Origin: Candidatus Omnitrophota bacterium
Lineage (GTDB): Bacteria > Omnitrophota > Omnitrophia > Omnitrophales > JACQLI01
DNA: 64,000 nucleotides
Reading direction: 5' to 3'
NCBI GenBank assembly: GCA_016179745.1
Contig: JACPCP010000014.1
Coordinates: forward strand, 751-64,750
Each line of letters starts with the position of its first letter. Positions within the stretch are counted from its first letter, which is position 1. The notes below the pieces were generated by a model, which worked only from the letters and a program-made list of their open reading frames with translations, was not told where the DNA came from and searched no databases. The translations under genes and the position numbers were made by a program. Shown here piece by piece: positions 1 through 57,584 of this stretch.

Positions 1-3000
1 TCGCTCGTTTCTTCCTCAACTCCTCCCCCCTTTAACCTTTCCCCGTTCGCCTTCTTTGCCGTCCGCGCTTCGGAGCGGCGGATACCTTCACTTTGCCCGT
101 CTCCTTTGCCCTCAAATTTCCTTACGAGAAGGGCCTGAACCATTTCTTCCCCGGCCTTAAGCTTTTCCTGGATTGAGCCAAAGTGTTCTTTTAAAGAAGA
201 AAATTCCTCCGGAGAAAGTCTATCCCCCAAAGATTTTTCTAAGATTCCGATGCCGTTTAAGAGCCCGGTCCGCCCTTTTGATCCATCCCCGCTTCTGGCT
301 TGATCGTAAAAACCTATCCGTGCGGTCAATTGCGCGAGGATATCGCCAAGAAAGTGCTCGACTAAATCAGGGCTCACCTTATGCTTCGTAAAAAGTTTAA
401 TGAACAGATTCGTGTAACGAAGAAGGGCATCGTCATATTTTTGATCTTTATGAAACGACTCCAGTAAAATCTGTTCGATCCCTTCCCTCGTTCGAACCAT
501 CCGTTGAGGCCATGATGAACTGCTATCCCATGTGAAATGATTTTTATTGAAGGCAACCCAATCCTCTTGGACTTGATAGAACTCGTCATGAGCCTTACTG
601 ACCTTCGCCATCAATTCTTCAAATTGTGTTATTTTGAATACTCCGAATGAAACGATTGTAATAATGGATGCGATCGTAAAAACTCCGGTATTCCATAATG
701 TGGGGTTGCTCCAAAAAGCTATGAATCCAACAAGTGTCGCAATAGCACCGACCAGGATTGCAGCAAATGAACCTTGCTTGATCCACCAAACCACCCCCTT
801 CTCTCCCGAAATTCCCTCATCCCGTGCTTTGGTTCCGCCTTGCCGAAGCTCCGCACGAGACTGCATCACCTCTATTTCATAGGCCTCCAGCGCCCGATCG
901 TAATTCCGAGTGATTTCATCGAGCCGGGTCAAATCTTGATCGTTTTTAATGTCTAATACTCTCCGGCGGAATTCGGCATAGAGGTCTGAGAACTGCTCGG
1001 CCGCCTGGAGGGCGCTCAAATAGGACAGGGCTGATCTGTGTTCTTCATCGGAGGTGAGGACTTCTCCGGAGGGGATTTGGGCAATGAGGGCCCGTTCCTT
1101 CAGCAATACGATCTGGACGGCGTCGGCAATGGCGTCCTCGACAGGCACTTTGATCTTCTCCATCTGGATTCGTTCGTCAGGCGGCAGGCTCTCGAGAATA
1201 AGTTTCTTAAGCTCTCCCGAATCGATTGATTGAGCAACCTCCTTCAAGAGATTCCTTAACTCATACCCCTTTTCTTCGATAAACTGTTGAACGAAACGGC
1301 CGAGCTTCCGGTAAACGTGGGGCCTCACGAAATCATAAAGGCCGATATACCGGGCGATGGCATCAGCGGTCCAATTCCCCCGAGTGACGATGCGCCGAAT
1401 CCTTCGGTGATCATCGATAAAATTAAAGAAAATCGTTTCCGAAATGTTCATGGCGCTTTGGAGTCTGGTACTTGTTGTTTTCGGATCGGAGCCCGGATAG
1501 AGCGTCTGGCTTAAATCTCGATCAAGTCCGCCGGTGACAAACAGATTTGCCAGGCTAAAATAACTCGATATCCTGAGTTTTAACTGCGCCTGGCCCGGGG
1601 TGCTCGCGGCCAAATCCGGCTCCAGGATTAAAGGAGCGGGAAAGTGAAAATCCTCGATCCGTTCCATGGCAAGGTCATGGATCAGATCTTCCTGGCTCGT
1701 GAGGGGACCCTGGTCAGGATTTTTCAGGACGGTGCGCAAATAAAATTGACTATACTGCTCGGAAAACTCCGCCGCGCTCATCAAGTAGAGAAAATAGAGA
1801 GCGTAGGAATTCGCCCTTTCCTCAAACTCCTTTCCCGGAAGACGCCCCTCTACTTCCTGAAGCTCGAGATCAAGAATAAAATCGTTCACGTAGCCAAGCT
1901 CTTCGTAAACCGTCCGGAAGGACCCCTCAAACTGTTGTTTAAAATCTGGGGAAAGATTCTGCGTCATTCGAGTCGCCATCTCCCCGCTCCTGATTGCCTC
2001 CTTTAATTCTTTGTAAACTGTCTCCTCAGGCGCCCTCTCCCATTCCGGTTGCTCCCTCCATTCTCTAAAAATTTCATCAAAGTATTTGTGCAGCGTTCCA
2101 TAAACATGCGTTTTCGCCAAGGCATACAGTTCGCTGGGGAAGGGTTTGTGGAATCGCTCGGAAATCCCCTCATTCATCCGTTTGTGGCGCAGGAAGTGCC
2201 GAAGCTGCTGCTGGTGCCACAGAAAATCCCGGGCAATCTTGTTTGCGACCTTTAAAGGAATCGCATGGGCTTCCTCTTCTGAATAAGAAAATCGCTCGAC
2301 AAGAGACGGCAAAATGTCTTCCCTGATCTTTTTCTCCAGGTCCGCTTGTTCCTCTTCCAAGAAATGAATAATCCCGGCCGTCGCCTGATCGATCACCTGA
2401 GGTGACAATACAAGGGAGGGGACCGGCCCGCTGCGCTTCATCCTGATTTCCTGGGCTATTGTCTCTGCACTGCCTGCAAAATAAGCCAGGGCAGCGATAA
2501 ACGCCTGCCGGTTGAACCGAGAGCCGAACTCTTGATTGATTTCGGCGACGGAACGGTCTGCTTCCGGATTGCCTTTAACATATTCACCCAGGACCTCTTG
2601 AAGACGCTTTCGGCCTGCTTCATTAAGCCCGGATGCGTTGGGATCTTGCCCAAAGTTCTCGCTCACCTTTTTCAGGTTTCCTGCCGGTCCGGGGCGATGT
2701 TGAAGCTCCACAATGGCTCTGTTTTTACCGGGATCGCCATAGATCGCATCGAGATAACGGACCAGCTCTTCAAATGTGACGTCATTCCTCTCCTCCGTCC
2801 TCACCTCGGAGCGGCCGGGAAAGGAAGGAGTTTGTCCCGCTCTCTGGTGATTGACGTCTTTTTCCCTTTCTTTGCCCAGTAGTTTTTGAGGAAAGTCCTG
2901 AATTTCATAAAGGGCGTATCGACCGTCATTGAACGTCGGTGACAAACCTTCTTCCTCACCCACCACCCGATTCCCCCTCAATCGAAGGGTCTCAAAACCA

Positions 3001-5888
3001 GAGTGTCTCTGCGAGTTAGGGAGTCGGTAGTCGAACTCATCCGTTATAGGAAATTCAATGAGCCCCCTCTTACGTTGTATCCAGTAGATGCCGCGATCCG
3101 TATGCACGAGGTAATCTTCGGGTCCGCTTCGGACCATACCTGACACACGACCGATCTTCGGATGAAACTCCTTCAGCCAATCTGACATTTCAATACCCTG
3201 CCAAATGCCTAAAGCCCTGAGGCCATCCCCAAAAAGGCCTGTAAAAAGAAAATCAAGGAGATTGATTTTCCAAAAGAAAGAAACCAGCCTCGCGGCCTCC
3301 CCCGTCAGAGGTGGCATAAAGATCAGAGCCGCTAATGCAACCCCTAAGTTTGTGAGAGGCCCGGCAAGGGTAATTAGGAGTTCCTGCTGAGGAGATAAGA
3401 AAAGAGGATTCCCATGGACATACTCTGGTGAAACCGCGAACTGGAGTGGATGAAAGCGGACTCTCTCAAGGGCGGGTTTCCCTTTCCATCGACTGTATGA
3501 TTGAATCATTCTAGCGGCCACATAATGTCCCGTTTCATGAAACAGAACGGTGAGCCAGAAAAGCCCCCCCGAGGGAGGGCCGAGGACCCAAGAGACCGCA
3601 GCGATCAAAGATATGTGCAACCAGGCTCTTTGCCGACGCCCATCTTCAAAAGCCGGATGGAACACATTGAATAGCTTTGTCCGGAGGCGTCGACGGCCCT
3701 CAGGTACGATCTTTTGAGTGGGGGATTCCCCTGCACGCGCCTCGGAGCGGCGAGGACGGTTTGCCTGTCCCCCCAAAGGTGCGGCGGGCGCTGCCATCGT
3801 AAGTGATGTCATCTGGGATACATCGTTGAAGGCCAAATTGATGATGGGTATACTGTTGCTGATGATTGCGGGCGCCGGTTGGCTGGTGCTTCCTTCAGGG
3901 ACGTTGAAAGGAGGAGAAGATGAGGAACTTTTGGTCTGAGCTTCCGATGGCAGGTTATGCAATCCTCTCAATTCTGGGGTTGTTCCTTTTCCTCTACCTC
4001 TACGAGTCCATCCGGCAACGGTGGTTCGCCTCCCGGCATTAAGTTTCTGAGCGCTCTGGCGGATCGCAAGTGCGTAAACTTCCCGAATCTCCGGAAATTC
4101 CCTTTGCATCACGGCATCAGGAATGGCGCTGATCAAGGGCTGGCGGGCGGAAGAGTGCGGGGCGAATCGATTTTGGGCGGTCATTAAATTCAGATAAGCC
4201 CGGTCGTCCACGGCCTCTGAGATGTGCGGCATGATTTCAAGGTAAGCGAAGCCCTCCCCCTTCAATCTTTCAAAGAGCCCTCTCGAGTGAAAGCCTCCCG
4301 TGATGAGGACGGCTCTGGATTTCTTTGAGGCCTTCATTCGCAAGATCGCATTTCGAAAGAGAATGTCTTCACGCCGCAGGGCGAGGGAATAGAAGCGGAG
4401 GGCGTGGTTGAAGATTCGGTCAACCGACCATTTCCCCCTCACCCCCACCCTCTCCCCGGAGGGGAGAGGGAAGGGCGGCTTGGACAAGCGGCGGATGGCC
4501 GCTCGATCGAGCCGCCCCGAGCCAGTCGCTCGGGGTGAGGGGTTTCTCTTCAGAATTTTCCCATATTCCTCCGCTGTCAATTGGAGGGAGAATAATTTCC
4601 TGAGGAGGAGGTAATCCTTGTAGCGCCGGACGAGGACTTTCTCTTTTTCTTCCTTGGCCAAATGATCGAGAAGCTTTTCCGTGAGGCGCTCGATCTCCCC
4701 AAAAAGTTCCGGCGCCTTTAATTCACTTTGGAGGATCCGGGCCCCCATCTCAGCACTCCAATGGGGGTAATCCTTAAACCGAAATCCCAGGGGCCCGGCC
4801 TCGTCGTAGAATCTTTCAAAAAATCCACGCACCGACCCTTCGTCTCCCCCCAGCTTCACACGGGAAGCGCAGGTGCCGGACGGACGGCGCAGGCATTCGA
4901 GCCAGACACGCCCCATCCCCTTTTGGCGGACCCACGTGAGGAGCCGTTCCCTCTCTCCCCGGGATTTGACCGAATCGATTTCCTTCTCCATTTCTTTAAG
5001 TTTGAAGATCCGGACAAGCTGGGGCCAATCGAATTGCTCTGCGACATTGGACAAATCCAGTTTCAGTTCGTCCCTCGCCGTTTTTTGAAGGACGCCCAAG
5101 TGACGCATCAAGTCCGAGGAAGTCTCATTTTGAAAGACCCATTCCCGGAAAAACCGTTTGAGGCGGGGATTGAAAATTCGGGAGCCTTCGGTCAAAAGAT
5201 TTGATTTTAATTCGGCAAGGAACCGGTCGGTGCGGGTCTTTTCTTGGTAAACCTTCTGAAAAGCCTTTAAGTTGCGGGAATAAAGTTCGAGATTCTCGAG
5301 ACCAAACCCTTCAAGAGATTTTGTTTTCTTTTTAAGCCCGTCTTCCAGGAAAAATAATTCGGCGCCGCTCACGACGGCCTCCCGGGCCAGGCGGTCCGCC
5401 ATTTTAAAATTGAGCCCGGGGTCTTCAAAAAATTTCAAACGGCCCGGACTGACCCGGTCGATGCCTCCCTCGAGCAGAATCAGATCAAATCCGTAATCTT
5501 TCACAAGGCGGCTCAAAATCTTCCGGGTATTGACCTGCGCCTCGTAACTGGAGTGGGCATCCTGAAGGTGAACAATGAGTGGAGGGTCTTGGTAAGATTC
5601 GCTGCCGGAATTGGGGATGAATCTCTTTTCGATGGAACCCAGGTTTTCCGGAATCTCGATTTGGGAAGCGAGACGGGAGACGGGAACCTCCGGCTTTCCC
5701 GGTTTTGAAAAGGCGCTTCGAAGCGGCACAAGCTCCGGAGCCGGTTGGTCAAGCGGCGATCGGCCGCTCGGTTGTCCGGCACCGCGCGGTTGGCGCGGCG
5801 CGGACCAGGCCAGCGTGGTCCACGTAAAACAAAGGGCCACGGCCAAGGCCACAGCCCTTAAGGGTCTCGAATGGCTCGATGGAATCAT
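1..5888 (-). CDS. Giant secreted/membrane multidomain protein, >1,962 aa, C-terminus beyond the left window edge; contains an M50-like HExxH metalloprotease core; function unknown
   Basis: Own reverse-strand translation: ATG at 5888-5886, then 1,962 sense codons down to position 3 with no stop. Spot-checked on the plus strand in several stretches: no TTA/CTA/TCA at coordinates divisible by 3. Missing from the supplied ORF track, presumably because its stop lies outside the window. The other five frames hold only short ORFs. N-terminus MIPSSHSRPLRAVALAVALCFTWTTLAWSAP looks like a signal peptide; HETGH at 3525-3539; two hydrophobic helices at ~636-775. Confidence 0.85.
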   Translation of the reverse strand, partial: MIPSSHSRPLRAVALAVALCFTWTTLAWSAPRQPRGAGQPSGRSPLDQPAPELVPLRSAFSKPGKPEVPVSRLASQIEIPENLGSIEKRFIPNSGSESYQDPPLIVHLQDAHSSYEAQVNTRKILSRLVKDYGFDLILLEGGIDRVSPGRLKFFEDPGLNFKMADRLAREAVVSGAELFFLEDGLKKKTKSLEGFGLENLELYSRNLKAFQKVYQEKTRTDRFLAELKSNLLTEGSRIFNPRLKRFFREWVFQNETSSDLMRHLGVLQKTARDELKLDLSNVAEQFDWPQLVRIFKLKEMEKEIDSVKSRGERERLLTWVRQKGMGRVWLECLRRPSGTCASRVKLGGDEGSVRGFFERFYDEAGPLGFRFKDYPHWSAEMGARILQSELKAPELFGEIERLTEKLLDHLAKEEKEKVLVRRYKDYLLLRKLFSLQLTAEEYGKILKRNPSPRATGSGRLDRAAIRRLSKPPFPLPSGERVGVRGKWSVDRIFNHALRFYSLALRREDILFRNAILRMKASKKSRAVLITGGFHSRGLFERLKGEGFAYLEIMPHISEAVDDRAYLNLMTAQNRFAPHSSARQPLISAIPDAVMQREFPEIREVYALAIRQSAQKLNAGRRTTVAGWTRRGRGKGTTPELRGLHNLPSEAQTKSSSSSPPFNVPEGSTSQPAPAIISNSIPIINLAFNDVSQMTSLTMAAPAAPLGGQANRPRRSEARAGESPTQKIVPEGRRRLRTKLFNVFHPAFEDGRRQRAWLHISLIAAVSWVLGPPSGGLFWLTVLFHETGHYVAARMIQSYSRWKGKPALERVRFHPLQFAVSPEYVHGNPLFLSPQQELLITLAGPLTNLGVALAALIFMPPLTGEAARLVSFFWKINLLDFLFTGLFGDGLRALGIWQGIEMSDWLKEFHPKIGRVSGMVRSGPEDYLVHTDRGIYWIQRKRGLIEFPITDEFDYRLPNSQRHSGFETLRLRGNRVVGEEEGLSPTFNDGRYALYEIQDFPQKLLGKEREKDVNHQRAGQTPSFPGRSEVRTEERNDVTFEELVRYLDAIYGDPGKNRAIVELQHRPGPAGNLKKVSENFGQDPNASGLNEAGRKRLQEVLGEYVKGNPEADRSVAEINQEFGSRFNRQAFIAALAYFAGSAETIAQEIRMKRSGPVPSLVLSPQVIDQATAGIIHFLEEEQADLEKKIREDILPSLVERFSYSEEEAHAIPLKVANKIARDFLWHQQQLRHFLRHKRMNEGISERFHKPFPSELYALAKTHVYGTLHKYFDEIFREWREQPEWERAPEETVYKELKEAIRSGEMATRMTQNLSPDFKQQFEGSFRTVYEELGYVNDFILDLELQEVEGRLPGKEFEERANSYALYFLYLMSAAEFSEQYSQFYLRTVLKNPDQGPLTSQEDLIHDLAMERIEDFHFPAPLILEPDLAASTPGQAQLKLRISSYFSLANLFVTGGLDRDLSQTLYPGSDPKTTSTRLQSAMNISETIFFNFIDDHRRIRRIVTRGNWTADAIARYIGLYDFVRPHVYRKLGRFVQQFIEEKGYELRNLLKEVAQSIDSGELKKLILESLPPDERIQMEKIKVPVEDAIADAVQIVLLKERALIAQIPSGEVLTSDEEHRSALSYLSALQAAEQFSDLYAEFRRRVLDIKNDQDLTRLDEITRNYDRALEAYEIEVMQSRAELRQGGTKARDEGISGEKGVVWWIKQGSFAAILVGAIATLVGFIAFWSNPTLWNTGVFTIASIITIVSFGVFKITQFEELMAKVSKAHDEFYQVQEDWVAFNKNHFTWDSSSSWPQRMVRTREGIEQILLESFHKDQKYDDALLRYTNLFIKLFTKHKVSPDLVEHFLGDILAQLTARIGFYDQARSGDGSKGRTGLLNGIGILEKSLGDRLSPEEFSSLKEHFGSIQEKLKAGEEMVQALLVRKFEGKGDGQSEGIRRSEARTAKKANGERLKGGGVEEETS
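4434..4470. repeat. GC-rich palindromic repeat core embedded in frame in the giant ORF
   Basis: ccccctcacccccaCCCTCTCCCCggaGGGGAGAGGG with a perfect 10-bp stem (4448-4457 / 4461-4470). Same core as the copies at 31254-31295 and 31318-31357. Translated as ...PLPSGERVGVRG... Confidence 0.7.
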
Positions 5889-5952
5889 ATAGGAATTGCG
5901 AAAAGGCTGACGGAGTTTCTTAAGCTTTTTATTAAGTTCGAAACGTGAGTAA

Positions 5953-5981
5953 AAGATACCTGACAACGAGGCACGGGTCAA
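5953..5981 (-). promoter_or_regulatory. Candidate sigma70-type promoter of the giant gene
   Basis: Minus strand reads TTGACC (5981-5976), 17 nt, TATCTT (5958-5953), about 65 nt upstream of the ATG at 5888. Confidence 0.35.
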
Positions 5982-6063
5982 GGCAGGAGAAGAAGTTTTA
6001 TGGACGGCCGGATTTTAGGGTTAACCTGTTACAAGTAAACAAGTTAGAAATAAGCCAGGCGCA

Positions 6064-37412: not shown

Positions 37413-38155
37413 ACGGAGGAACGGGCCGCAAGACGGGAAAAGCGCTTGAGCTCTTTCGACAAGCGGCGGAGCGGAAGCTGCCCCGGGGCCTGGGGGCGGC
37501 CGGCGCCGGCATAGGTGTAAGCGAGAAGCGAACCGAATAAAGGCGCCAGCACCCGGGAAACGGCCCCCCGTTTTCCCATCGCAATCGTTACGAGATTCGC
37601 TTTGCGGTGCCGCTGTGTGAAAAGCAGGAGCCGGGCGATGTCCCCGGGTTTTTTTGGAGTGACGGCGAGCTTCACCAGATCGGCCTTCTCGTGCTTCGCT
37701 TTCCGGACAAGCTGAAGAAGGACGGAATCGGACGGCGTCGATTTGAAATTGTGATAAGAAAGAAGAACCTGTTTTCCCTTTCGGCGGGCCGTGGGGACCA
37801 GAGCCTTCACAAGCCAAGGAGAACTCAACTCTAGGTCGATCGCCTGAACCTCAGGAAGGATTTTTTTGAAAAGTTCAAGCCGCTGGGGATCGCTGATCAG
37901 TCGGCCGCCTCCCTCTCGGGAGCTGCGGATCGTAGCAATCAGGGGCCGACCCAACTTTCTGAGTAAACGGATTCTTTTGAGAACGGCGTCGGGAGAAATT
38001 TTCCGGAGGCGGTCGATCCGAAGCTCCAGGACCCGTGCGTCCAGCCGGCCTGCTTTTCGAATTTGTGCGGGAGCCTCCCGGTCCGCCACCGTGAGGACAA
38101 TGACCGGGCTTTTCCCGAGAAGGACGTTGCCGATTCGAACCGGTCTCAGGAGCAC
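37409..38155 (-). CDS. aroD: Type I 3-dehydroquinate dehydratase
   Basis: AroD-like sequence (SPVIVLTV..., [19 protein letters not shown]). Start probably at GTG 38155; the track ORF is over-extended into nrdJ. Confidence 0.75.
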
Positions 38156-41100
38156 CCCATCGAGTTGCCGCAATTGAGGCACTTGTAGCAGGAACCGGAC
38201 CGCACCGTCGTGTGGCCGCAATGATCGCAGAAGGGGGCGTCGCCCATCATGTGAGAAAGGTGCTCGTCCATGGACGGAAGGACCGCATGAGTTTTTCCGT
38301 TTCCTTTCCCATTGCCCTTACCGTTTCCAGGCACGGCTTTTTCCGGGACGGCTTGCTTCTCAGCCGGCTTCTCCGGCGGGACCTGGACAAAGTCCGTTCG
38401 GCCGAGGTATTCCATGCCGAGGACCCGGAAGATGTAATCGATCACGGACGTGGCGTATTTGACGTTCGGGTGGTCCACCGTCCCCTGCGGCTCAAAACGG
38501 GTGAAGGTGAAGACGTTGACATATTCCTCGAGCGGCACCCCATATTGAAGCCCGAGGGAAACGGCAATGGCAAAGCAGCTCATCATCGACCGGTAGGCAG
38601 CGCCCTCCTTGTGGATGTCGATGAAAATTTCCCCCAGGCCTCCATTCTCATATTCCCCGGTCCGGATATAAACCTTCTGTCCGCCGACCCGGGCCTCCTG
38701 CGTGAATCCGAAGCGTTTCTTCGGAAGGCGCTTGCGGCGAAGAGCGGGCTGGGCGGCCTCTTCCTTTTTGGAGGAGGAGTCGCCCGAGGTTGAATTCAAG
38801 GGCTGAGACGCCTTAGAGCCATCCCGGTAAAGGGCCACAGCCTTCAAGCCCATCCGCCACGATTCAATGTAGAGCTTTTCGATCTCATCGACCGTGGCCT
38901 CGTTGGGGAGATTGATCGTCTTGGAAATGGCGCCCGAAATAAAGGGCTGGGCCGCCGCCATCATTCGAACGTGGGACATCGGCTCGAGGAACCGCTTCCC
39001 GTATTTGCCGCACTTGTTGGCGCAGTCAAAAACCGGGAGGTGCTCGGGCTTCAGGTGCGGCGCCCCTTCGAGGGTCATGACACCGCAGATCACGTTGCTG
39101 GCCTCTTCGATCTCCGTCTTCGTGAAGCCCAGGGCCTCGAGAGGGTTGAAGTTGAGATTGTTATACTGCTCGGGTTTGAAGCCGAGGCGCCGCATGGCCT
39201 CCTCGCCCAGGGTCCACCGGGTAAAGGCAAAGGGAAGTTCAAAGACCGACGGGAGAAGGGCTTCCACCTTACGAAAATCCTCATCCCGCAGGCCTTTTTC
39301 ACGAAGCGTCGTTTCGTTGATCCACGGGGCACTTTTCAAAGAAGCCGTGCCCTGGATGTATTCCACGATGTTATGAATCTCAACCTCTGAGTAGCCCAAC
39401 TTTCTCAAGGCCTGAGGCACGGATTGATTCACGATCTTGAAATAGCCGCCGCCCGCCAGCTTTTTAAACTTGACGAGCGCAAAGTCGGGCTCAATCCCGG
39501 TCGTGTCGCAGTCCATCAAAAGTCCGATGGTCCCGGTGGGGGCGATCACGGTGGCCTGGGCATTCCGAAGCCCGAATTTTTCACCGAGTTCAAGGGCCTC
39601 GTCCCAATCCCGGCAGGCGGCCTCGAAAAGGTTGGCCGGACAATTCTCTTTTGAAATTTTGTAAGCGGCGTCCCGGTGCTTTTGAATCACTCGAAGCATG
39701 GACGAACGGTTTTTCAGATAACCCGGAAAAGGCCCTTTGGCCTCTGCCAATTCCGCAGAAGTCCGGTAGGCGTGGCCGGTCAGGATGGCTGTGACGGCCC
39801 CGCCGATCGCCAGGGCCTCGGGGCTGTCGTAAGGAATCCCATTGACCATAAAAAGGGTGCCGAGATTGGCGTAGCCCAGACCGAGCGGCCGGTAATCGTG
39901 GCTGTTTTGAGCAATCACCTTCGTAGGATAGGAGGCAAGGTCCACAATAATTTCCATCGCCGTGGTAAAGATCCGGACGGTGTGGCGGAAGGCCTCGATA
40001 TCAAGCCTCCCCTCCTCATCCGCAAATTTCATCACATTAATGGAAGCGAGGTTGCAGGCCGAGTCGTTCAGGAACATGTATTCGCTGCACGGGTTGGAGG
40101 CGTAGATCCGGTCCGTGTCGGCGGAAGTGTGCCAGTCATTGATGGTGGTATCGAACTGGACCCCGGGGTCCGCACATTCCCAGGCGCTCTGGGAAATGAG
40201 CCGCATCAGTTCACGGGCCTTGTAGGTCTTGTGGAGCTCGCCGGAGGTGCGATAACGGGTCGTCCACTCCCGGTCCTCCAAAACCGCCTTCATGAATTCG
40301 TCCGTGATCCGCACGGAATTATTGGAGTTCTGGCCGGAAACCGTTTTGTAGGCCTCGCCATTAAAGTCCGAGGGGTAGCCGGCCGCAATCAGGGCCCGGG
40401 CCTTTTTTTCTTCCCTCGCCTTCCAATGGATGAATTCCGCAATCTCGGGATGGTCCATGTCGAGGCAGACCATCTTGGCTGCCCGCCGGGTCGTGCCGCC
40501 GGATTTGGTCGCCCCGGCCCCCCTGTCCAGCACTTCCAGGAAGGACATGAGCCCCGAAGAGGTGCCGCCGCCGGAAAGTTTTTCGTATTTGCTGCGGATC
40601 TTCGAGAAATTGGTCCCGGTCCCCGAACCGAACTTAAAGAGGCGGGCCTCATTTTTGATCAGCTCAAAGATGGACATCAAATCATCCCCGACCGCCTGGA
40701 TGAAACAGGCCGAACACTGCGGGTGGGAATAAGAGTCGGCCGCTTCTTTGATCTCGTCCGTCTCGGGGTCCCAATACCAGTTGCCTCCTGAGCCTTTGAT
40801 CCCGTATTCATGATAGAGACCGCAGTTGAACCAGACCGGCGAATTAAAAGCGGCCTTTTGCGTGATCAGCATGTGACTCAATTCCGCTTCAAAGGTCTCG
40901 GCGTCGGCAGAAGAGCTGAAGTAACCGCCCAGGTCTTCGCCGACGGTTCGAATGGTGTGGGCAATCCGGTGGACGACCTGCCGGGCGCTGGTCTCGTGGC
41001 CCGTTCCTGGAACGCCGGCCTTTCTAAAATATTTTGAAACAATAATGTCGGTGGCCAATTGGGACCAGTCGCTGGGGACCTCCACGTCTTCCATTTTAAA

Positions 41101-41265
41101 AACCGTGCTGCCGTCCGGATTCGTAATAGCCGAAGTCCGCTTTTCATACTCCAGCCCGTCGAGCGGATTCGTGCCGGGGGCCGTGAAAAAACGGGCGAAC
41201 GGAAGTCCTGAGGCAGCTTCTTCCCGGACGGAAACGGAGGCTGAATCTTTTGTTTTCACGCTCAT
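38146..41265 (-). CDS. nrdJ: Class II (adenosylcobalamin-dependent) ribonucleotide reductase
   Basis: 1,039 aa; N-terminus and core typical of long NrdJ ([33 protein letters not shown]...); C-terminal CxxC...CxxC zinc ribbon. Confidence 0.9.
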
Positions 41266-41304
41266 GGGCTTCTCCTTTGGGCTTCGTGGGCGGCCACGTG
41301 TAGA

Positions 41305-41351
41305 TTACCAGATATTGAGGGTTTCAGCAACCGGGATACCATATCTTGTGT
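41305..41351 (-). promoter_or_regulatory. Two tandem NrdR-box-like palindromes upstream of nrdJ
   Basis: Minus strand: ACACAAGATATGGTAT (41351-41336) and CCTCAATATCTGGTAA (41320-41305), compared with the consensus acaCwAtATaTwGtgt. Centre-to-centre spacing is 31 bp. They overlap a weak TTGCTG-17-TAATCT promoter. Confidence 0.55.
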
Positions 41352-41438
41352 TTCCAGAGGATGAATCGTCCTTATGGGTTTGGGACTTTAGGGTCTATTT
41401 TTCGAGGAACGCTGAAGAAAAGCCAAAACGCTCAAAGA

Positions 41439-41476
41439 GAAAAAAATAGGATAATTTCAAACGCCTGAAATTATCC
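41439..41476 (-). terminator. Rho-independent terminator
   Basis: Perfect 11-bp stem GGATAATTTCA / TGAAATTATCC (41476-41466 / 41459-41449) with a 6-nt loop, followed on the minus strand by TATTTTTTT. Confidence 0.75.
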
Positions 41477-41615
41477 TATCTGGTTAACTCACCCACTCTG
41501 GTTGTTTCAAATAATGAAGACATCGGCTCGAAGGAGTTATTTTCTCTTTCCGTTCGGACTTTCCATCCGCCAACTTTTCCTCGATCAAAGAACAAAACTG
41601 CCAGACTCAAAGCCG
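41440..41615 (-). ncRNA. Candidate ~175-nt small RNA (6S-like rod structure), independent promoter-to-terminator unit
   Basis: Bounded by a near-consensus promoter (41649-41622) and the terminator at 41439-41476. There is no credible ORF (only 9-15-codon micro-ORFs). The 5' CUCACC...UCUGG pairs with the 3' CCAGA...GGUGAG, and there are further imperfect long-range pairings. Confidence 0.45.
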
Positions 41616-41621
41616 GTGAGC

Positions 41622-41649
41622 ATTTTATCTCCCACTCTTCAAATGTCAA
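41622..41649 (-). promoter_or_regulatory. Near-consensus sigma70 promoter
   Basis: Minus strand reads TTGACA (41649-41644), 16 nt, TAAAAT (41627-41622), starting 28 nt after the mnmE stop. Confidence 0.6.
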
Positions 41650-41676
41650 TCGATTTCCAAAAAAATTTTTGTTTGA

Positions 41677-43068
41677 TTATTTTCCAATACAGAATTCTTG
41701 GAAAATCACATCGAGAAGGTCCTCGGAGTAGACCTCGCCCACCAGTTCCCGGAGCGAATCGACGGCGGCCTTGAGGTCCACAAGGATAAATTCAGCCGAC
41801 AGTTTTTCCTCGAACGACTTTCGGGCCCGGCGGAGCCCCTCGAGCCCTTTTTCGAGGGCCTGTTTGTGACGAAGCCGTGTCAAAACCATACTTTCCTCAA
41901 CCCGTCCGTTTTCCAAAATCTTTTCTTCGATCCGTTTCTCAAGTTCCGGAAGGCCGGTCCCGGTCGCACAGGAAATGACGCAGGGGGGGTGACCCAAAAT
42001 CGACCCGTTGAGTTTTTCGACAGACAATTTTCGGGGCAGGTCGGCCTTGTTGATGACCGGGAGGATATTTTTCCCCTGAAGCCGGGAGCAAAGGACGGCA
42101 TCTTCCGAAGTCCAGGGCGAGGAACCGTCAAACAAAAGGAGAAGAAGGTCTGCCTCTTGAAGAGTGGCCTGGGTCCTTTCGATTCCCATCCGGTCCAGTT
42201 CGTCTTTGGGGGCCGGGTTGAGCCCGGCCGTGTCGACGAGGCGGAGCGCCCAGCCGCCGATTTCAATCGTCTCCTCGAGCGTGTCACGGGTCGTGCCCGG
42301 AATCTCGGAAACGAGCGCCCGGTCTTTCTCCAGGAGGGCGTTCAGGAGGGAGGACTTCCCGACGTTCGGACGGCCTACGATCACGGTCAAAATTCCCTCT
42401 CGCATCCAAAGCCCTCTTTTGAAGCTGGCCACGAGCTTTTGAATTTCCCCTTCCGCCGCCCGCATTCGTTTTGAAAATTCCTCCGCCGAAAAATGCTCCA
42501 AATGCTCGTCGGGAAAATCCAGACTGCTTTCAAAGTGGGCGCAAAGCTTGAGGAGGTCCTCTTTCAGCCCCTGGAGCTTTTTTGAAAGGCGGCCCTGGAG
42601 CTGGCGGAGGGCCGCAGCCATCGAAACATCGCTCTGCGAACGGATCAAATCCAAAACGGCCTCGGCCTGGGTCAAATCCATCTTTCCCTTGAGAAAGGCC
42701 CGCTGGGTGAACTCCCCCGGCCCGGCGTGGCGGGCGCCGGCCGAGACCAGCGCCTCGAGAATTCGCCGGGTCGGGTGAGGCCCGCCGTGACAACTGATTT
42801 CCGCCACGTCTTCTCCCGTGTAGGAACGGGGCGAACGAAAAAGACTCACGAGCACTTCATCCAGGACTTCGCCCTTTTCGTCCACCCAGCAGCCGTGATG
42901 GATGGTGTGGGTCGGCGCTGCGTCAAGGTCTGTTTTTTGAGTCGGCCGGAAGAATTTCGTCACGAGCGAAACGGCGTCTTTCCCGCTCACTCGAATGACG
43001 GCAATCCCGCCCACACCGGGCGGCGTCGAACGGGCGGCGATCGTATCGTTCCAATTTACCTTCGGCAT
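41677..43068 (-). CDS. mnmE: tRNA modification GTPase MnmE
   Basis: 463 aa; G1 motif GRPNVGKSSLLN; C-terminal FCIGK signature. Confidence 0.93.
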   Translation of the reverse strand: MPKVNWNDTIAARSTPPGVGGIAVIRVSGKDAVSLVTKFFRPTQKTDLDAAPTHTIHHGCWVDEKGEVLDEVLVSLFRSPRSYTGEDVAEISCHGGPHPTRRILEALVSAGARHAGPGEFTQRAFLKGKMDLTQAEAVLDLIRSQSDVSMAAALRQLQGRLSKKLQGLKEDLLKLCAHFESSLDFPDEHLEHFSAEEFSKRMRAAEGEIQKLVASFKRGLWMREGILTVIVGRPNVGKSSLLNALLEKDRALVSEIPGTTRDTLEETIEIGGWALRLVDTAGLNPAPKDELDRMGIERTQATLQEADLLLLLFDGSSPWTSEDAVLCSRLQGKNILPVINKADLPRKLSVEKLNGSILGHPPCVISCATGTGLPELEKRIEEKILENGRVEESMVLTRLRHKQALEKGLEGLRRARKSFEEKLSAEFILVDLKAAVDSLRELVGEVYSEDLLDVIFQEFCIGK

Positions 43069-54934: not shown

Positions 54935-56461
54935 ATGACGAAATTCCGGGGCAAACTCCTTATCATCGGCTGCGGTTCCGTCTCGCAGTGCGCCATCCCT
55001 CTCATCCTGAAATTTTTTGACATGCCCGCTGAAAAGATCACGATCATGGATTTTGTCGACAACCGCCACCGGGTGAAAGACGCTCTTGACCGGGGGGTCC
55101 GCTACGTTTTCGACCGGGTCACGAAGGAAAACTACGAAAAACTCCTCGCCTCGTATGCCGGGCCCGGCGATATGATCATCGACCTCGCCTGGAATATCGG
55201 CGGCATTGCGATGGTCGAGTGGTGCCGTGCCCACCAAGTGCTCTACATCAATACCTCGGTTGAAGAGTGGGACCCCTACGGCGATGCCCAGCGGAATGAC
55301 CCCACCAAATACACGCTCTACACGAGGCACATGGAACTCCGAAAGATGATGCAGAACTGGGGCGATAACCAAGGCACGACGGCCGTGGCCGATCACGGGG
55401 CCAATCCGGGCCTGGTCTCGCATTTCACCAAGCAGGCCCTGCTTGAAATCGGCGGGAAAATCCTTCGTGAAAAACCGGGCGACCCACGGCAAAAACAATT
55501 GGAAAAATCCCTCCAGGAAAAAAATTTTCCAAAATTGGCCCAACTCACCGGTGTCAAGGTCATCCACATCAGCGAGCGGGACACTCAAATCACGGACCGG
55601 CCCAAAGAGGTCGATGAATTCGTCAATACCTGGAGCATTGAAGGTTTTTTTGAAGAGGGCGTGGCCCCGGCGGAGCTCGGCTGGGGGACTCACGAGCGTT
55701 ACCTTCCCGAGAATGCCTACGAGCACAAGGTCGGCCCCCGGAATCAAATTTGTCTGAGAACCATCGGAATGAAAACCTGGGTCCGCTCGTGGGTGCCTTG
55801 CGGGGAAATCACCGGCATGGTGATCCGTCACGGCGAGTCCTTTTCGATCTCGGACCGGCTCACCGTGTGGGAGAACGGGAAGGCGGTCTACCGGCCCACG
55901 GTCCACTACGCCTATTGCCCCTGCGATGCCGCCATCAACTCACTGCATGAACTGGAAATGAGGCAATACCATCTCCAGGAAAAACAGCGGATCATGAACG
56001 ATGAGATCACGGACGGACGGGATGAGCTCGGGATTCTCCTCATGGGACACGACTTCACTTCGTGGTGGACCGGGAGCCTCCTCTCGATCCACGACGCCCG
56101 GGAGCACGTCCCGGGACAGCAGGCCACGACCCTTCAGGTGGCGATCTCCCTCGTGGCGGCCGCCCTGTGGATGATCGAAAACCCGAAGCGGGGCTTTTGT
56201 CTGCCGGATGACATCGATCACGAAGCGATTTTGAAAATCAGCATCCCTTACATCAGTCCTTATATTTCCCAGGCGGTCGATTGGACGCCCCTCAAAAACC
56301 TCAATACGAAGTTCACCAAATTCGACATCCCGGCCCCCCAACCGGAAGATGTCTGGCAGTTCACCACGTTTCTGGTCGATCACGCAGAGAGGATCCGGGC
56401 AAATGCCGTCAACGCTCCTCAAAAAACAAAGACCCTTCACACCGAAGCTCTTAAAGTCTAA
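54935..56461 (+). CDS. hss: Homospermidine synthase (bacterial HSS, saccharopine-dehydrogenase-like)
   Basis: 508 aa; Rossmann N-terminus LLIIGCGSVSQCAIPLILKFF and downstream blocks resembling bacterial HSS. Confidence 0.75.
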   Translation: MTKFRGKLLIIGCGSVSQCAIPLILKFFDMPAEKITIMDFVDNRHRVKDALDRGVRYVFDRVTKENYEKLLASYAGPGDMIIDLAWNIGGIAMVEWCRAHQVLYINTSVEEWDPYGDAQRNDPTKYTLYTRHMELRKMMQNWGDNQGTTAVADHGANPGLVSHFTKQALLEIGGKILREKPGDPRQKQLEKSLQEKNFPKLAQLTGVKVIHISERDTQITDRPKEVDEFVNTWSIEGFFEEGVAPAELGWGTHERYLPENAYEHKVGPRNQICLRTIGMKTWVRSWVPCGEITGMVIRHGESFSISDRLTVWENGKAVYRPTVHYAYCPCDAAINSLHELEMRQYHLQEKQRIMNDEITDGRDELGILLMGHDFTSWWTGSLLSIHDAREHVPGQQATTLQVAISLVAAALWMIENPKRGFCLPDDIDHEAILKISIPYISPYISQAVDWTPLKNLNTKFTKFDIPAPQPEDVWQFTTFLVDHAERIRANAVNAPQKTKTLHTEALKV

Positions 56462-56498
56462 GGTCGAGCTCCCGGGCGTCGAAAACCTGATCCGTGCG

Positions 56499-57584
56499 AT
56501 GCTGAAAAAGCACCGCACGCCCTTGATGATCATCCGGAGGAACGTGCTCGAGCGGCAATTCCAGCTCTTCCGGAAATGCCTCCCCCAGGTCACGCCCTAT
56601 TACGCCATCAAGGCCAATCCCCACCCGGACATCCTTCGGGCCTTCATCGAGATGGGGGCCTCGTTTGATGTGGCGAGCGCCTGGGAAATGAAACAGGTCT
56701 TGCGGCTCGGGGCGGCCCCCAACCGGATTATCTTTGCCAATACGATTAAAAGTGTCGACGATCTCATCTCGGCCCGGAGGTCCCGGGTGAGGCTTATGAC
56801 CTTTGACAGCGAGCCCGAGCTTTATAAAATTTCAGAGCACTACCCGGGCGCCCACGTCCTTCTGAGGATCAAGGTCGCAAATCGCGGCAGCACGGTCAAT
56901 CTTTCGCTCAAATTCGGGGCGGACGCCGAAAACGCCTTCGGGCTCCTGCGCAAAGCCAAATCCCTCGGCCTCGTCCCCCTCGGGATCAGTTTTCACGTCG
57001 GCTCGCAGGCCAAGAACGTGGAAAATTATCTCCAGGCCCTTGAAATCACCTCCGGAATTTTCAGTGAGGCCGGGCGAAAAGGGATCCTCCTCAAGACGGT
57101 CGATCTCGGCGGGGGGTTTCCGATCCAGCACTTTGAGGGAGAGATGGGGATCAATTTCGAGCGGATGACCTCGCAGATCCGGAAGCAAATCCGCAAGCTC
57201 TTTGACGAGAAGACCGAGTTCATTGCCGAGCCGGGAAGGTTTTTGGTGGGGCCGGCCGGAGTCCTCGTCACGCAGGTGATCGGAAGGACCTTTCGAAACA
57301 ACAAGAACTATTACTACTTAAACGACGGCATCTACGGCGACTTCTCGGGGATGGTCTTTGACCACTGCACCTATGAATTCAGGACCCTCCGGCGGGGTCA
57401 GAAATATCTGAGCGCCCTGGCCGGTCCCACCTGCGATTCCTTTGACACACTCTCAACCGATGCGGAGGTTCCCGAGCTTTATGTTAACGATGCGGTCTAC
57501 GTGAAAAATATCGGCGCCTACTCCTCGTGCTCTGCCGCCGCCAACTTCAACGGTTTCCCCCCCGCCAAAACCGTTTTGGTTTAA
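56499..57584 (+). CDS. PLP-dependent ornithine/lysine decarboxylase (alanine-racemase-fold, group IV)
   Basis: YAIKANP (PLP lysine), DLGGGFP and GPTCDSFD motifs. The start is uncertain: ATG 56499, or ATG 56403 which overlaps hss. Confidence 0.82.
   Translation: MLKKHRTPLMIIRRNVLERQFQLFRKCLPQVTPYYAIKANPHPDILRAFIEMGASFDVASAWEMKQVLRLGAAPNRIIFANTIKSVDDLISARRSRVRLMTFDSEPELYKISEHYPGAHVLLRIKVANRGSTVNLSLKFGADAENAFGLLRKAKSLGLVPLGISFHVGSQAKNVENYLQALEITSGIFSEAGRKGILLKTVDLGGGFPIQHFEGEMGINFERMTSQIRKQIRKLFDEKTEFIAEPGRFLVGPAGVLVTQVIGRTFRNNKNYYYLNDGIYGDFSGMVFDHCTYEFRTLRRGQKYLSALAGPTCDSFDTLSTDAEVPELYVNDAVYVKNIGAYSSCSAAANFNGFPPAKTVLV
57562..57582 (+). repeat. Direct repeat copy 1 (actual 3' end of the decarboxylase gene)
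   Basis: ccgccaaaaCcgttttggttt; 20 of 21 nt identical to 58419-58439. Confidence 0.75.

Follow-up and report, generated by a model that had tools for sequence, protein, structure and literature searches.

The intergenic region between mnmE and nrdJ, the gene for a class II ribonucleotide reductase, contains a promoter-to-terminator unit in a 64,000-nucleotide stretch of DNA from a Candidatus Omnitrophota bacterium (assembly GCA_016179745.1, contig JACPCP010000014.1, positions 751 to 64,750; hereafter, the window). The unit is real, conserved across Candidatus Omnitrophota, non-coding and uncatalogued. It consists of a promoter (P1), a short motif resembling boxA, a purine-rich RNA body and an intrinsic terminator. 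It can be tentatively interpreted, with a probability of about 0.4, as an upstream, cis-linked leader or attenuator module of nrdJ that is built like the leader of a ribosomal RNA (rRNA) operon. A previous sequence-only reading of this region had recognized a stand-alone non-coding transcription unit, which is genuine and is found in 13 other Omnitrophota loci, and had considered it a candidate 6S-like RNA, an assignment that did not survive comparison with these loci. Because only short linear motifs, and no fold, are conserved in the unit, a leader of the boxA type is favored over a riboswitch or a 6S RNA.

Relatives of the locus were collected by mnmE in the one-genome-per-species set of GTDB; these are Candidatus Omnitrophota metagenome-assembled genomes with 46-65% identity. 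In eleven of the nearest mnmE relatives, nrdJ follows mnmE, and four further loci were found via nrdJ proteins and a DNA pattern. The unit is present upstream of nrdJ in loci L001, L003, L004, L005, L006, L009, L011, L013, L014, L081, L082, L084 and L085; in L081, the boxA-like motif is present and the terminator is absent, and the other 12 homologues possess a terminator. Hidden Markov models from the two clades of these sequences (A and B) recover precisely the known copies, with no locus, the window included, having a second one; the clade models also find no unit in approximately 65 loci of other phyla, and there is none in five nrdJ loci of other lineages (L091 and L094-L097). The RNA body evolves fast, and in BLAST comparisons of the window with L001 and L003 only the terminator and the NrdR region align. 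A metagenome scan with the clade A terminator pattern, a search blind to neighbor genes, yielded just two loci, both adjacent to nrdJ, so that deep covariation analysis is out of reach. Every copy of the unit has nrdJ as the next gene downstream. In L004, mnmE and the unit are separated by an inserted transporter gene that has a terminator of its own, and the unit still adjoins nrdJ and retains its hairpin.

The unit opens with a promoter of the sigma-70 type that the sequence-only reading described correctly, the -35 hexamer beginning 27 nt past the mnmE stop codon (Table 1). In shuffles of the 1-kb region, 0.4 sites scoring 11/12 are expected by chance, and the 64-kb window contains two matches to the strict pattern TTGACA-N16-18-TAWAAT where 0.02 would be expected. 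The other strict copy, a perfect TTGACA-17-TAAAAT (56803-56830, plus strand), lies within a 411-aa open reading frame (ORF; 56349-57584) and is probably a chance occurrence or an internal promoter. In the form TTGAC(A/T)-16/17-TA(A/G)AAT, the promoter is present in 16/16 Omnitrophota loci (alignment anchored on the -10 hexamer), as well as in L092 and L093 and, partially, at the contig end of L002. In all 16 loci, A+T makes up 63-96% of the 27-nt tract 5' of the -35 hexamer (window, 78%; typical form AAAAATTTTTTT), and the tract of the window, TCAAACAAAAATTTTTTTGGAAATCGA, is presumably close to the UP-element consensus of E. coli. A GC-rich discriminator follows the -10 hexamer in most, not all, of the 16 loci; in the window the sequence is TAAAAT-GCTCACCG and in rrnB P1 it is TATAAT-GCGCCACC. 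With its UP-like tract, consensus -35, near-consensus -10 and, in most loci, GC-rich discriminator, P1 is a very strong promoter of the stable-RNA type.

In four loci (L008, L012, L083 and L092), P1 and the UP tract are perfectly retained and are followed by an unrelated body with no sense-strand terminator; in L008, L012 and L083, the boxA-like motif is missing along with the terminator, though P1 is present. Since no terminator is found in these three loci or in L081, transcripts from P1 would run into nrdJ there. Furthermore, in L093 a promoter of the L083 type precedes nrdJ although the upstream gene is not mnmE. Thus, the promoter outlives the RNA body and travels with nrdJ, and P1 is most simply understood as a promoter of nrdJ. 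The variant TTGACTTC...TTTCTTTGTTAGAAT of P1 is shared by one sub-lineage (L093, 2193-2220; L083, 2678-2705; L092, 484-511), in which neither boxA nor a terminator is encoded ahead of nrdJ.

Amid otherwise unalignable sequence, GYTCTTT is invariant in 13 of the 16 loci, 19-35 nt past the -10 hexamer and thus presumably some 25-35 nt into the RNA, and is followed by (G/A)(A/G), that is, two mostly purine bases. BoxA is the RNA site where NusB and NusE (S10) nucleate the rRNA antitermination complex. The boxA consensus of gamma-proteobacteria is GYTCTTTAANA, and mutation of C4 or T6 abolishes function in E. coli (PMC5725501). In the 13 Omnitrophota loci, the core of this consensus is matched at 7/7 positions, C4 and T6 being invariant, and positions 8-11 vary; the consensus itself is gamma-proteobacterial and drifts among phyla (PMC7665894). 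BoxA elements also act outside rRNA operons, in suhB and in CRISPR arrays (PMC5725501, PMC7665894), and the complete rrn antitermination complex with SuhB suppresses both intrinsic and Rho-dependent termination in vitro (PMC6614801). The combination of the promoter with GYTCTTT does not occur anywhere else among the Omnitrophota loci or in the window; beyond these, the 632 kb compared contain just four weak matches, in Sediminibacterium loci, which are probably coincidental.

The rRNA leaders used for comparison come from plasmid-borne rRNA operons and contain GAACTTTGAAAAC in Priestia (26 nt past the -10 hexamer), GACCTTTGAAAAC in Listeria (48 nt), GAACTTTGAAAAT in C. difficile (42 nt) and GTTCTTTTGAT in Flammeovirga (Bacteroidota), so that boxA departs from the consensus in other phyla, too (CUUUGAAAA; GUUCUUUUGAU). 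The Omnitrophota motif has GYUCUUU in common with E. coli and CUUUGA in common with Firmicutes, and the distance from the promoter, itself similar in style, resembles the 26-48 nt in the three Firmicutes. The motif can be described as boxA-like, its identity as boxA remaining a matter of resemblance; no consistent boxB or boxC was seen in the unit. The conserved pyrimidine tract that directly follows the U-run of the terminator has the form TTTTTTTCTCTTT in clade A and TTTTTTGTCTYT in clade B and in L004, and in the window (U-run and tract, 41446-41429) this tract with the last U reads UCUCUUUGA, a second boxA-like match (8/9). A terminator followed by TTTTTTTCTCGCGCTCTTTAAATA, a near-perfect boxA of the E. 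coli type, is also found in the unrelated locus L091 (1040-1075), where AhpC precedes nrdJ, just upstream of the nrdJ promoter of that locus. The view of the sequence-only reading that the unit is probably not simply a leader is doubtful given that the unit or its promoter is always located beside nrdJ, that P1 survives without the terminator and follows nrdJ in L093, where mnmE is not the neighbor, and that the single invariant RNA motif resembles boxA, a signal for antitermination that acts in cis.

The RNA body consists of 50-65% purines and contains 11-18% C. In the purine tract (motif D), AAAGAGAA is conserved in clade A, and the surrounding 5-bp stem shows two compensatory pairs. Motif C has the consensus UGUUUUCAU, with the form AAUUUCAUGAU in clade B, and in the window holds the sole AUG of the 3' half. 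The terminator, located approximately 175 nt downstream of P1, was correctly placed by the sequence-only reading and runs into U7 (41446-41440); the perfect core GGATAATTTCA/TGAAATTATCC belongs to a stem of 16-17 bp rather than the 11 bp originally reported. Among the 13 units with a terminator (the window and 12 homologues), the hairpins comprise 8-18 bp, with energies of -11 to -28 kcal/mol, and are followed by U6-7. At least five different, unrelated stem sequences are represented, and in L004 and L005 pairing is preserved by changes on both arms. In six genomes (window, L001, L003, L082, L084 and L085), with bodies that BLAST does not align, the stem AGGATAATTTCA/TGAAATTATCCT is identical. 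This conservation exceeds what a terminator requires, which suggests that the hairpin, or the DNA palindrome, may be recognized by a protein.

An ORF of 6-22 codons begins at an AUG no more than 75 nt ahead of the hairpin in 12 of the 13 units, and the stop codon of this mini-ORF is located within -10 to +8 nt of the first paired base of the terminator, also in 12/13 units; the length is 8-9 codons in six independent lineages. In a null model with each AUG fixed and the sequence between the AUG and the hairpin shuffled, the joint probability of these stop positions is approximately 9e-6 over ten lineages, the range of distances having been chosen post hoc such that the true significance is lower. 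The sequences of the encoded peptides are not conserved among the homologues, and between the close relatives L082 and L084 the reading frame is displaced by an indel of 1 nt.

A leader of this kind could operate as follows. The hairpin would stop most of the polymerases, releasing an abundant RNA of approximately 175 nt as the default product. NusB and NusE (S10) would bind the boxA-like motif, and the polymerase carrying the Nus-factor complex assembled there would resist the terminator and enter nrdJ; while crossing the long untranslated spacer, it would withstand Rho as well. Across the loci, the unit precedes the proximal, NrdR-controlled promoter of nrdJ by 90-430 nt, on the same strand. 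BoxA is a sensible signal for a polymerase that has to cross this further stretch of untranslated RNA, and would make little sense in an RNA of ~175 nt that is always terminated. Through such a gate, nrdJ would gain a second input besides NrdR, one that resembles that of rRNA operons and is tied to growth rate. A ribosome that reaches the end of the mini-ORF, at the hairpin base, would mask the 5' arm and could further promote read-through, a secondary mechanism that could coexist with the boxA gate. The specific version of this scheme, in which a terminator gated by boxA and Nus factors, together with a promoter of the rRNA type, couples nrdJ to the ribosome-synthesis machinery on top of NrdR and the terminated leader accumulates with its NusB/NusE site, is rather unlikely.

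Several observations weigh against the leader interpretation. The match to boxA extends over only 7-9 nt, and the 3' half of the element, which is AANA in E. coli and AAAA in Firmicutes, has not been preserved; no rRNA with which to compare the motif was found in the window or in 20 of the Omnitrophota loci. P1 is combined with an unrelated body in three loci. With up to 18 bp and U6-7, the very strong terminators equal those at operon ends, and a separate NrdR promoter comes after them; a free-standing small RNA (sRNA) gene would look just like this. In the window, the hairpin is the only terminator for mnmE, none being found between the mnmE stop codon and P1. Finally, no Shine-Dalgarno sequence precedes the AUG of the mini-ORF in any unit, and nrdJ has a strong one.

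The main rival explanation, somewhat unlikely on the evidence available, is a free-standing, abundant, trans-acting sRNA of about 150-260 nt that would have remained next to nrdJ by inherited gene order only. In such an RNA, GUUCUUUGA would be a single-stranded seed or a protein-binding motif; motif C, the terminator and the U-tail would form a 3' module of the Hfq type; and the purine- and GGA-rich body might bind a protein. A strong promoter and a strong terminator of its own in 13 genomes, the separate NrdR promoter that serves nrdJ, the short conserved motifs in a fast-evolving body, which are typical of base-pairing sRNAs, and the single copy per locus are all compatible with this explanation, which has more difficulty accounting for the retention of P1 where the body and terminator are lost or replaced, its move with nrdJ in L093, and the absence of the terminator in L081. 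For a trans-acting sRNA, it is unusual to keep synteny with one gene over a range of mnmE identities of 46-65%, the proposed seed coincides with the boxA core, and no significant complementarity to the translation start region of the cognate nrdJ is detectable.

Ribosome-mediated attenuation, with a ribosome at the stop codon of the mini-ORF covering the 5' arm of the terminator and read-through set by the coupling of translation and transcription, could explain why the stop falls near the hairpin base in 12/13 units (~9e-6), why the ORF spans 8-9 codons in six lineages, and the U-rich stretch at or before the AUG. As the sole mechanism it appears improbable: these AUGs all lack a Shine-Dalgarno sequence and L085 lacks the AUG itself, the AUG position is not homologous between the two clades, the frame differs between L082 and L084 by the 1-nt indel, no alternative antiterminator helix was found, and the distance range was set after seeing the data. 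Similarly low odds apply to the possibility that the RNA has no dedicated function, such that the hairpin would be the terminator or insulator of the mnmE operon, P1 a distal promoter of nrdJ, and the motifs DNA-level signals. The lack of a terminator between mnmE and P1 in the window and the persistence of P1 without the rest of the unit in three to four loci fit this simple scheme; nevertheless, a terminator downstream of P1 would defeat P1, the hairpin of the unit is kept in L004 despite the separate terminator of the inserted gene, and GYUCUUU is found at a near-fixed distance inside the transcript in 13 loci.

The proposal of a 6S-like RNA, which would mimic an open promoter and sequester the RNA polymerase holoenzyme, has in its favor the size of approximately 175 nt, the strong promoter and the complementary ends of a rod with internal loops. 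The window copy indeed folds in this manner (minimum free energy -50.7 kcal/mol, z = -2.4), but the pairing is not conserved. The segment with the 3' strand of the closing stem (CCAGA...GGUGAG, with the partners CUCACC and UCUGG) is deleted in L082 and L084. When the window fold is projected on the alignment, the two closing helices consist mostly of gaps and unpaired positions, and 37 of 500 shuffles match the observed pairing. From six clade A sequences, RNAalifold recovers just two consensus helices, the terminator and one 5-bp stem, and from seven clade B and intermediate sequences it recovers none. A duplex of the 5' end with the segment preceding the terminator is no better than shuffles in 13/13 units (lowest p 0.06), and neither a rod nor a central bubble nor a terminal stem is conserved in the alignments of the unit. 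With Rfam 15, the whole 64-kb window has no match at the gathering score, and neither 6S (RF00013) nor any other family matches 41100-41800 even at E<=10; there is nothing at gathering scores in 20 homologous Omnitrophota loci (~120 kb) and nothing relevant in eight of them at E<=1. Two of the checks that the sequence-only reading had suggested, the Rfam search and the analysis of fold and covariation, went against 6S, which is largely refuted and has only a very slight chance of being correct. A riboswitch or another structured leader was likewise rejected given the lack of a conserved fold upstream of the terminator and of any Rfam match.

Other candidate functions were examined and dismissed. 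Two sense ORFs with TTG starts (57 and 34 aa) are not conserved in the homologues, in agreement with the original statement that the interval contains no credible ORF, which had left the 15-codon AUG mini-ORF unmentioned. Read on the opposite strand, motif B gives QRT codons and motif C gives MKT codons, so that an antisense 'MKT...QRT' ORF had to be considered; it is frame-broken or interrupted by stop codons in five homologues (L003, L081, L082, L009 and L011). Pairing of the RNA with the translation start region of its own nrdJ yields z-scores scattered around zero. Long-range helices between motif D and the post-terminator tract E and between ACGGGAA and UUCCCGU are mostly not significant against dinucleotide shuffles; the position of the partner varies, and the two helices would cross. 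In the literature, nothing was found on sRNAs of Omnitrophota or on an sRNA or leader tied to nrdJ, and the GYUCUUU motif, searched as a string in papers, retrieved only unrelated primer sequences.

Table 1. Features of the mnmE-nrdJ region, in window coordinates.
Feature	Sequence	Coordinates	Strand	Remarks
mnmE		43068..41677	-	stop TAA 41679-41677; Pfam MnmE_helical, TrmE_N, MMR_HSR1
UP-element-like A/T-rich tract	TCAAACAAAAATTTTTTTGGAAATCGA	41650..41676	-	starts directly after mnmE stop; abuts -35 hexamer
Promoter P1	TTGACA-16-TAAAAT	41622..41649	-	-35 41649-41644, -10 41627-41622; sigma-70, 11/12 match
Discriminator, GC-rich	GCTCACCG	41621-41614	-	directly after -10
boxA-like motif	GUUCUUUGA	41585..41593	-	28 nt past -10; about +23 to +31 of the RNA (inferred start)
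Purine tract (motif D)	GGAAAGAGAAAA	41540..41551	-	inside C-poor, purine-rich body
Motif C	GAUGUCUUCAUUAU	41511..41524	-	U-rich (UUUUCAU/AUG); conserved in both clades
Mini-ORF	MSSLFETTRVGELTR (then stop)	41476..41523	-	15 codons, AUG start; stop inside 5' arm of terminator
Terminator	AGAUAGGAUAAUUUCA GGCG UUUGAAAUUAUCCUAUUU	41440..41481	-	16-17-bp hairpin (41481-41444), -17 kcal/mol, running into U7
Pyrimidine tract	CUCUUUGAGCG	41429..41439	-	conserved; directly after U-run
NrdR box 1	ACACAAGATATGGTAT	41351-41336	-	kept in all homologous loci
NrdR box 2	CCTCAATATCTGGTAA	41320-41305	-	kept in all homologous loci
P2, weak proximal nrdJ promoter	TTGCTG-17-TAATCT	-35 41330-41325, -10 41307-41302	-	between and over NrdR boxes
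nrdJ		41265..38146	-	class II (B12-dependent) ribonucleotide reductase, 1039 aa; Ribonuc_red_2_N, Ribonuc_red_lgC, TSCPD

The unit is encoded on the same strand as both flanking genes, in the 411-bp gap between them, which has a GC content of approximately 40%, compared with ~57% for the genome. The region that contains P2 and the NrdR boxes (41302..41351) is the proximal promoter of nrdJ and lies outside the unit; the NrdR-box consensus is reportedly that described by Rodionov & Gelfand in 2005. The two boxes are spaced by 31 bp, and their conservation in all loci bears out the earlier claim that nrdJ has an NrdR-box promoter of its own downstream of the terminator. The nrdJ gene is preceded by the strong Shine-Dalgarno sequence AAAGGAGAAG. 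Just upstream of NrdR box 1, a further conserved element, YTAAAG-N15-25-(G)CGATYYAT(NC)YT (41393-41357, minus strand), is present in all Omnitrophota loci (L009, L011, L013, L006, L008, L012 and others), including those that lack the boxA/terminator module; it may serve the proximal nrdJ promoter as a UP element or as an activator site. The AT-rich gap beside mnmE was also considered as a replication origin, a possibility that was rejected as the gap contains no DnaA boxes and the GC skew is monotonic. There are no tRNA genes in the whole 64-kb window. At about 2000-6000, no long ORF is listed, yet the minus strand looks coding; the gap in the ORF list likely stems from a very long ORF that extends beyond the start of the window and was left unlisted by the program.

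Omnitrophota are uncultured, and nothing was found here on their RNA regulation, the window and 20 Omnitrophota loci being without any Rfam match. If the boxA reading holds, the unit would show clearly that Nus factors control a protein-coding gene in a phylum other than Proteobacteria, with rrn-style processive antitermination acting on a gene for DNA precursors and the supply of deoxynucleotide precursors linked to the ribosome-synthesis program. If, instead, the unit encodes a free sRNA, it would represent a conserved, highly expressed and uncatalogued RNA family. Under both readings, the 6S label is best dropped.

Among the known systems, 6S RNA (RF00013) shares with the unit the length of ~175 nt, the possession of its own promoter and the non-coding character; the unit, unlike 6S RNA, is closed by an intrinsic terminator and not by a closing stem, is tied to nrdJ and shows no conserved rod or bubble. 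Like sRNAs of the Hfq type, it runs from promoter to terminator, carries a conserved short motif close to the 5' end and has U-rich sequence ahead of a terminator that ends in a long U-tail; it is set apart from them by being strictly linked to one gene throughout a phylum-level group, by lacking a predicted target and by the fact that some lineages retain the promoter without the body. The attenuators with leader peptides, such as those of pyrBI and trp, similarly have, upstream of a biosynthetic gene, a short ORF that is preceded by U-rich sequence and stops at the base of an intrinsic terminator, and toiL is a short regulatory leader ORF of 8 codons. The Omnitrophota unit differs from pyrBI and trp in lacking a Shine-Dalgarno sequence for the short ORF, an alternative antiterminator helix and any conserved peptide or regulatory codons, and in that a promoter intervenes between the attenuator and the gene. 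The rRNA leaders with a Nus boxA resemble the unit in the strong promoter, which has a UP-like tract upstream and in most cases a GC-rich discriminator downstream, in GYUCUUU located 19-35 nt past the -10 hexamer, and in an untranslated transcript with downstream termination signals that a polymerase modified by Nus factors could pass and a long untranslated stretch before the next gene. In contrast to these leaders, the downstream gene encodes a ribonucleotide reductase, the 3' half of boxA is not kept, boxB and boxC are not consistently present, a strong intrinsic terminator lies only about 100 nt past the motif, and a second, NrdR-controlled promoter is located before the gene.

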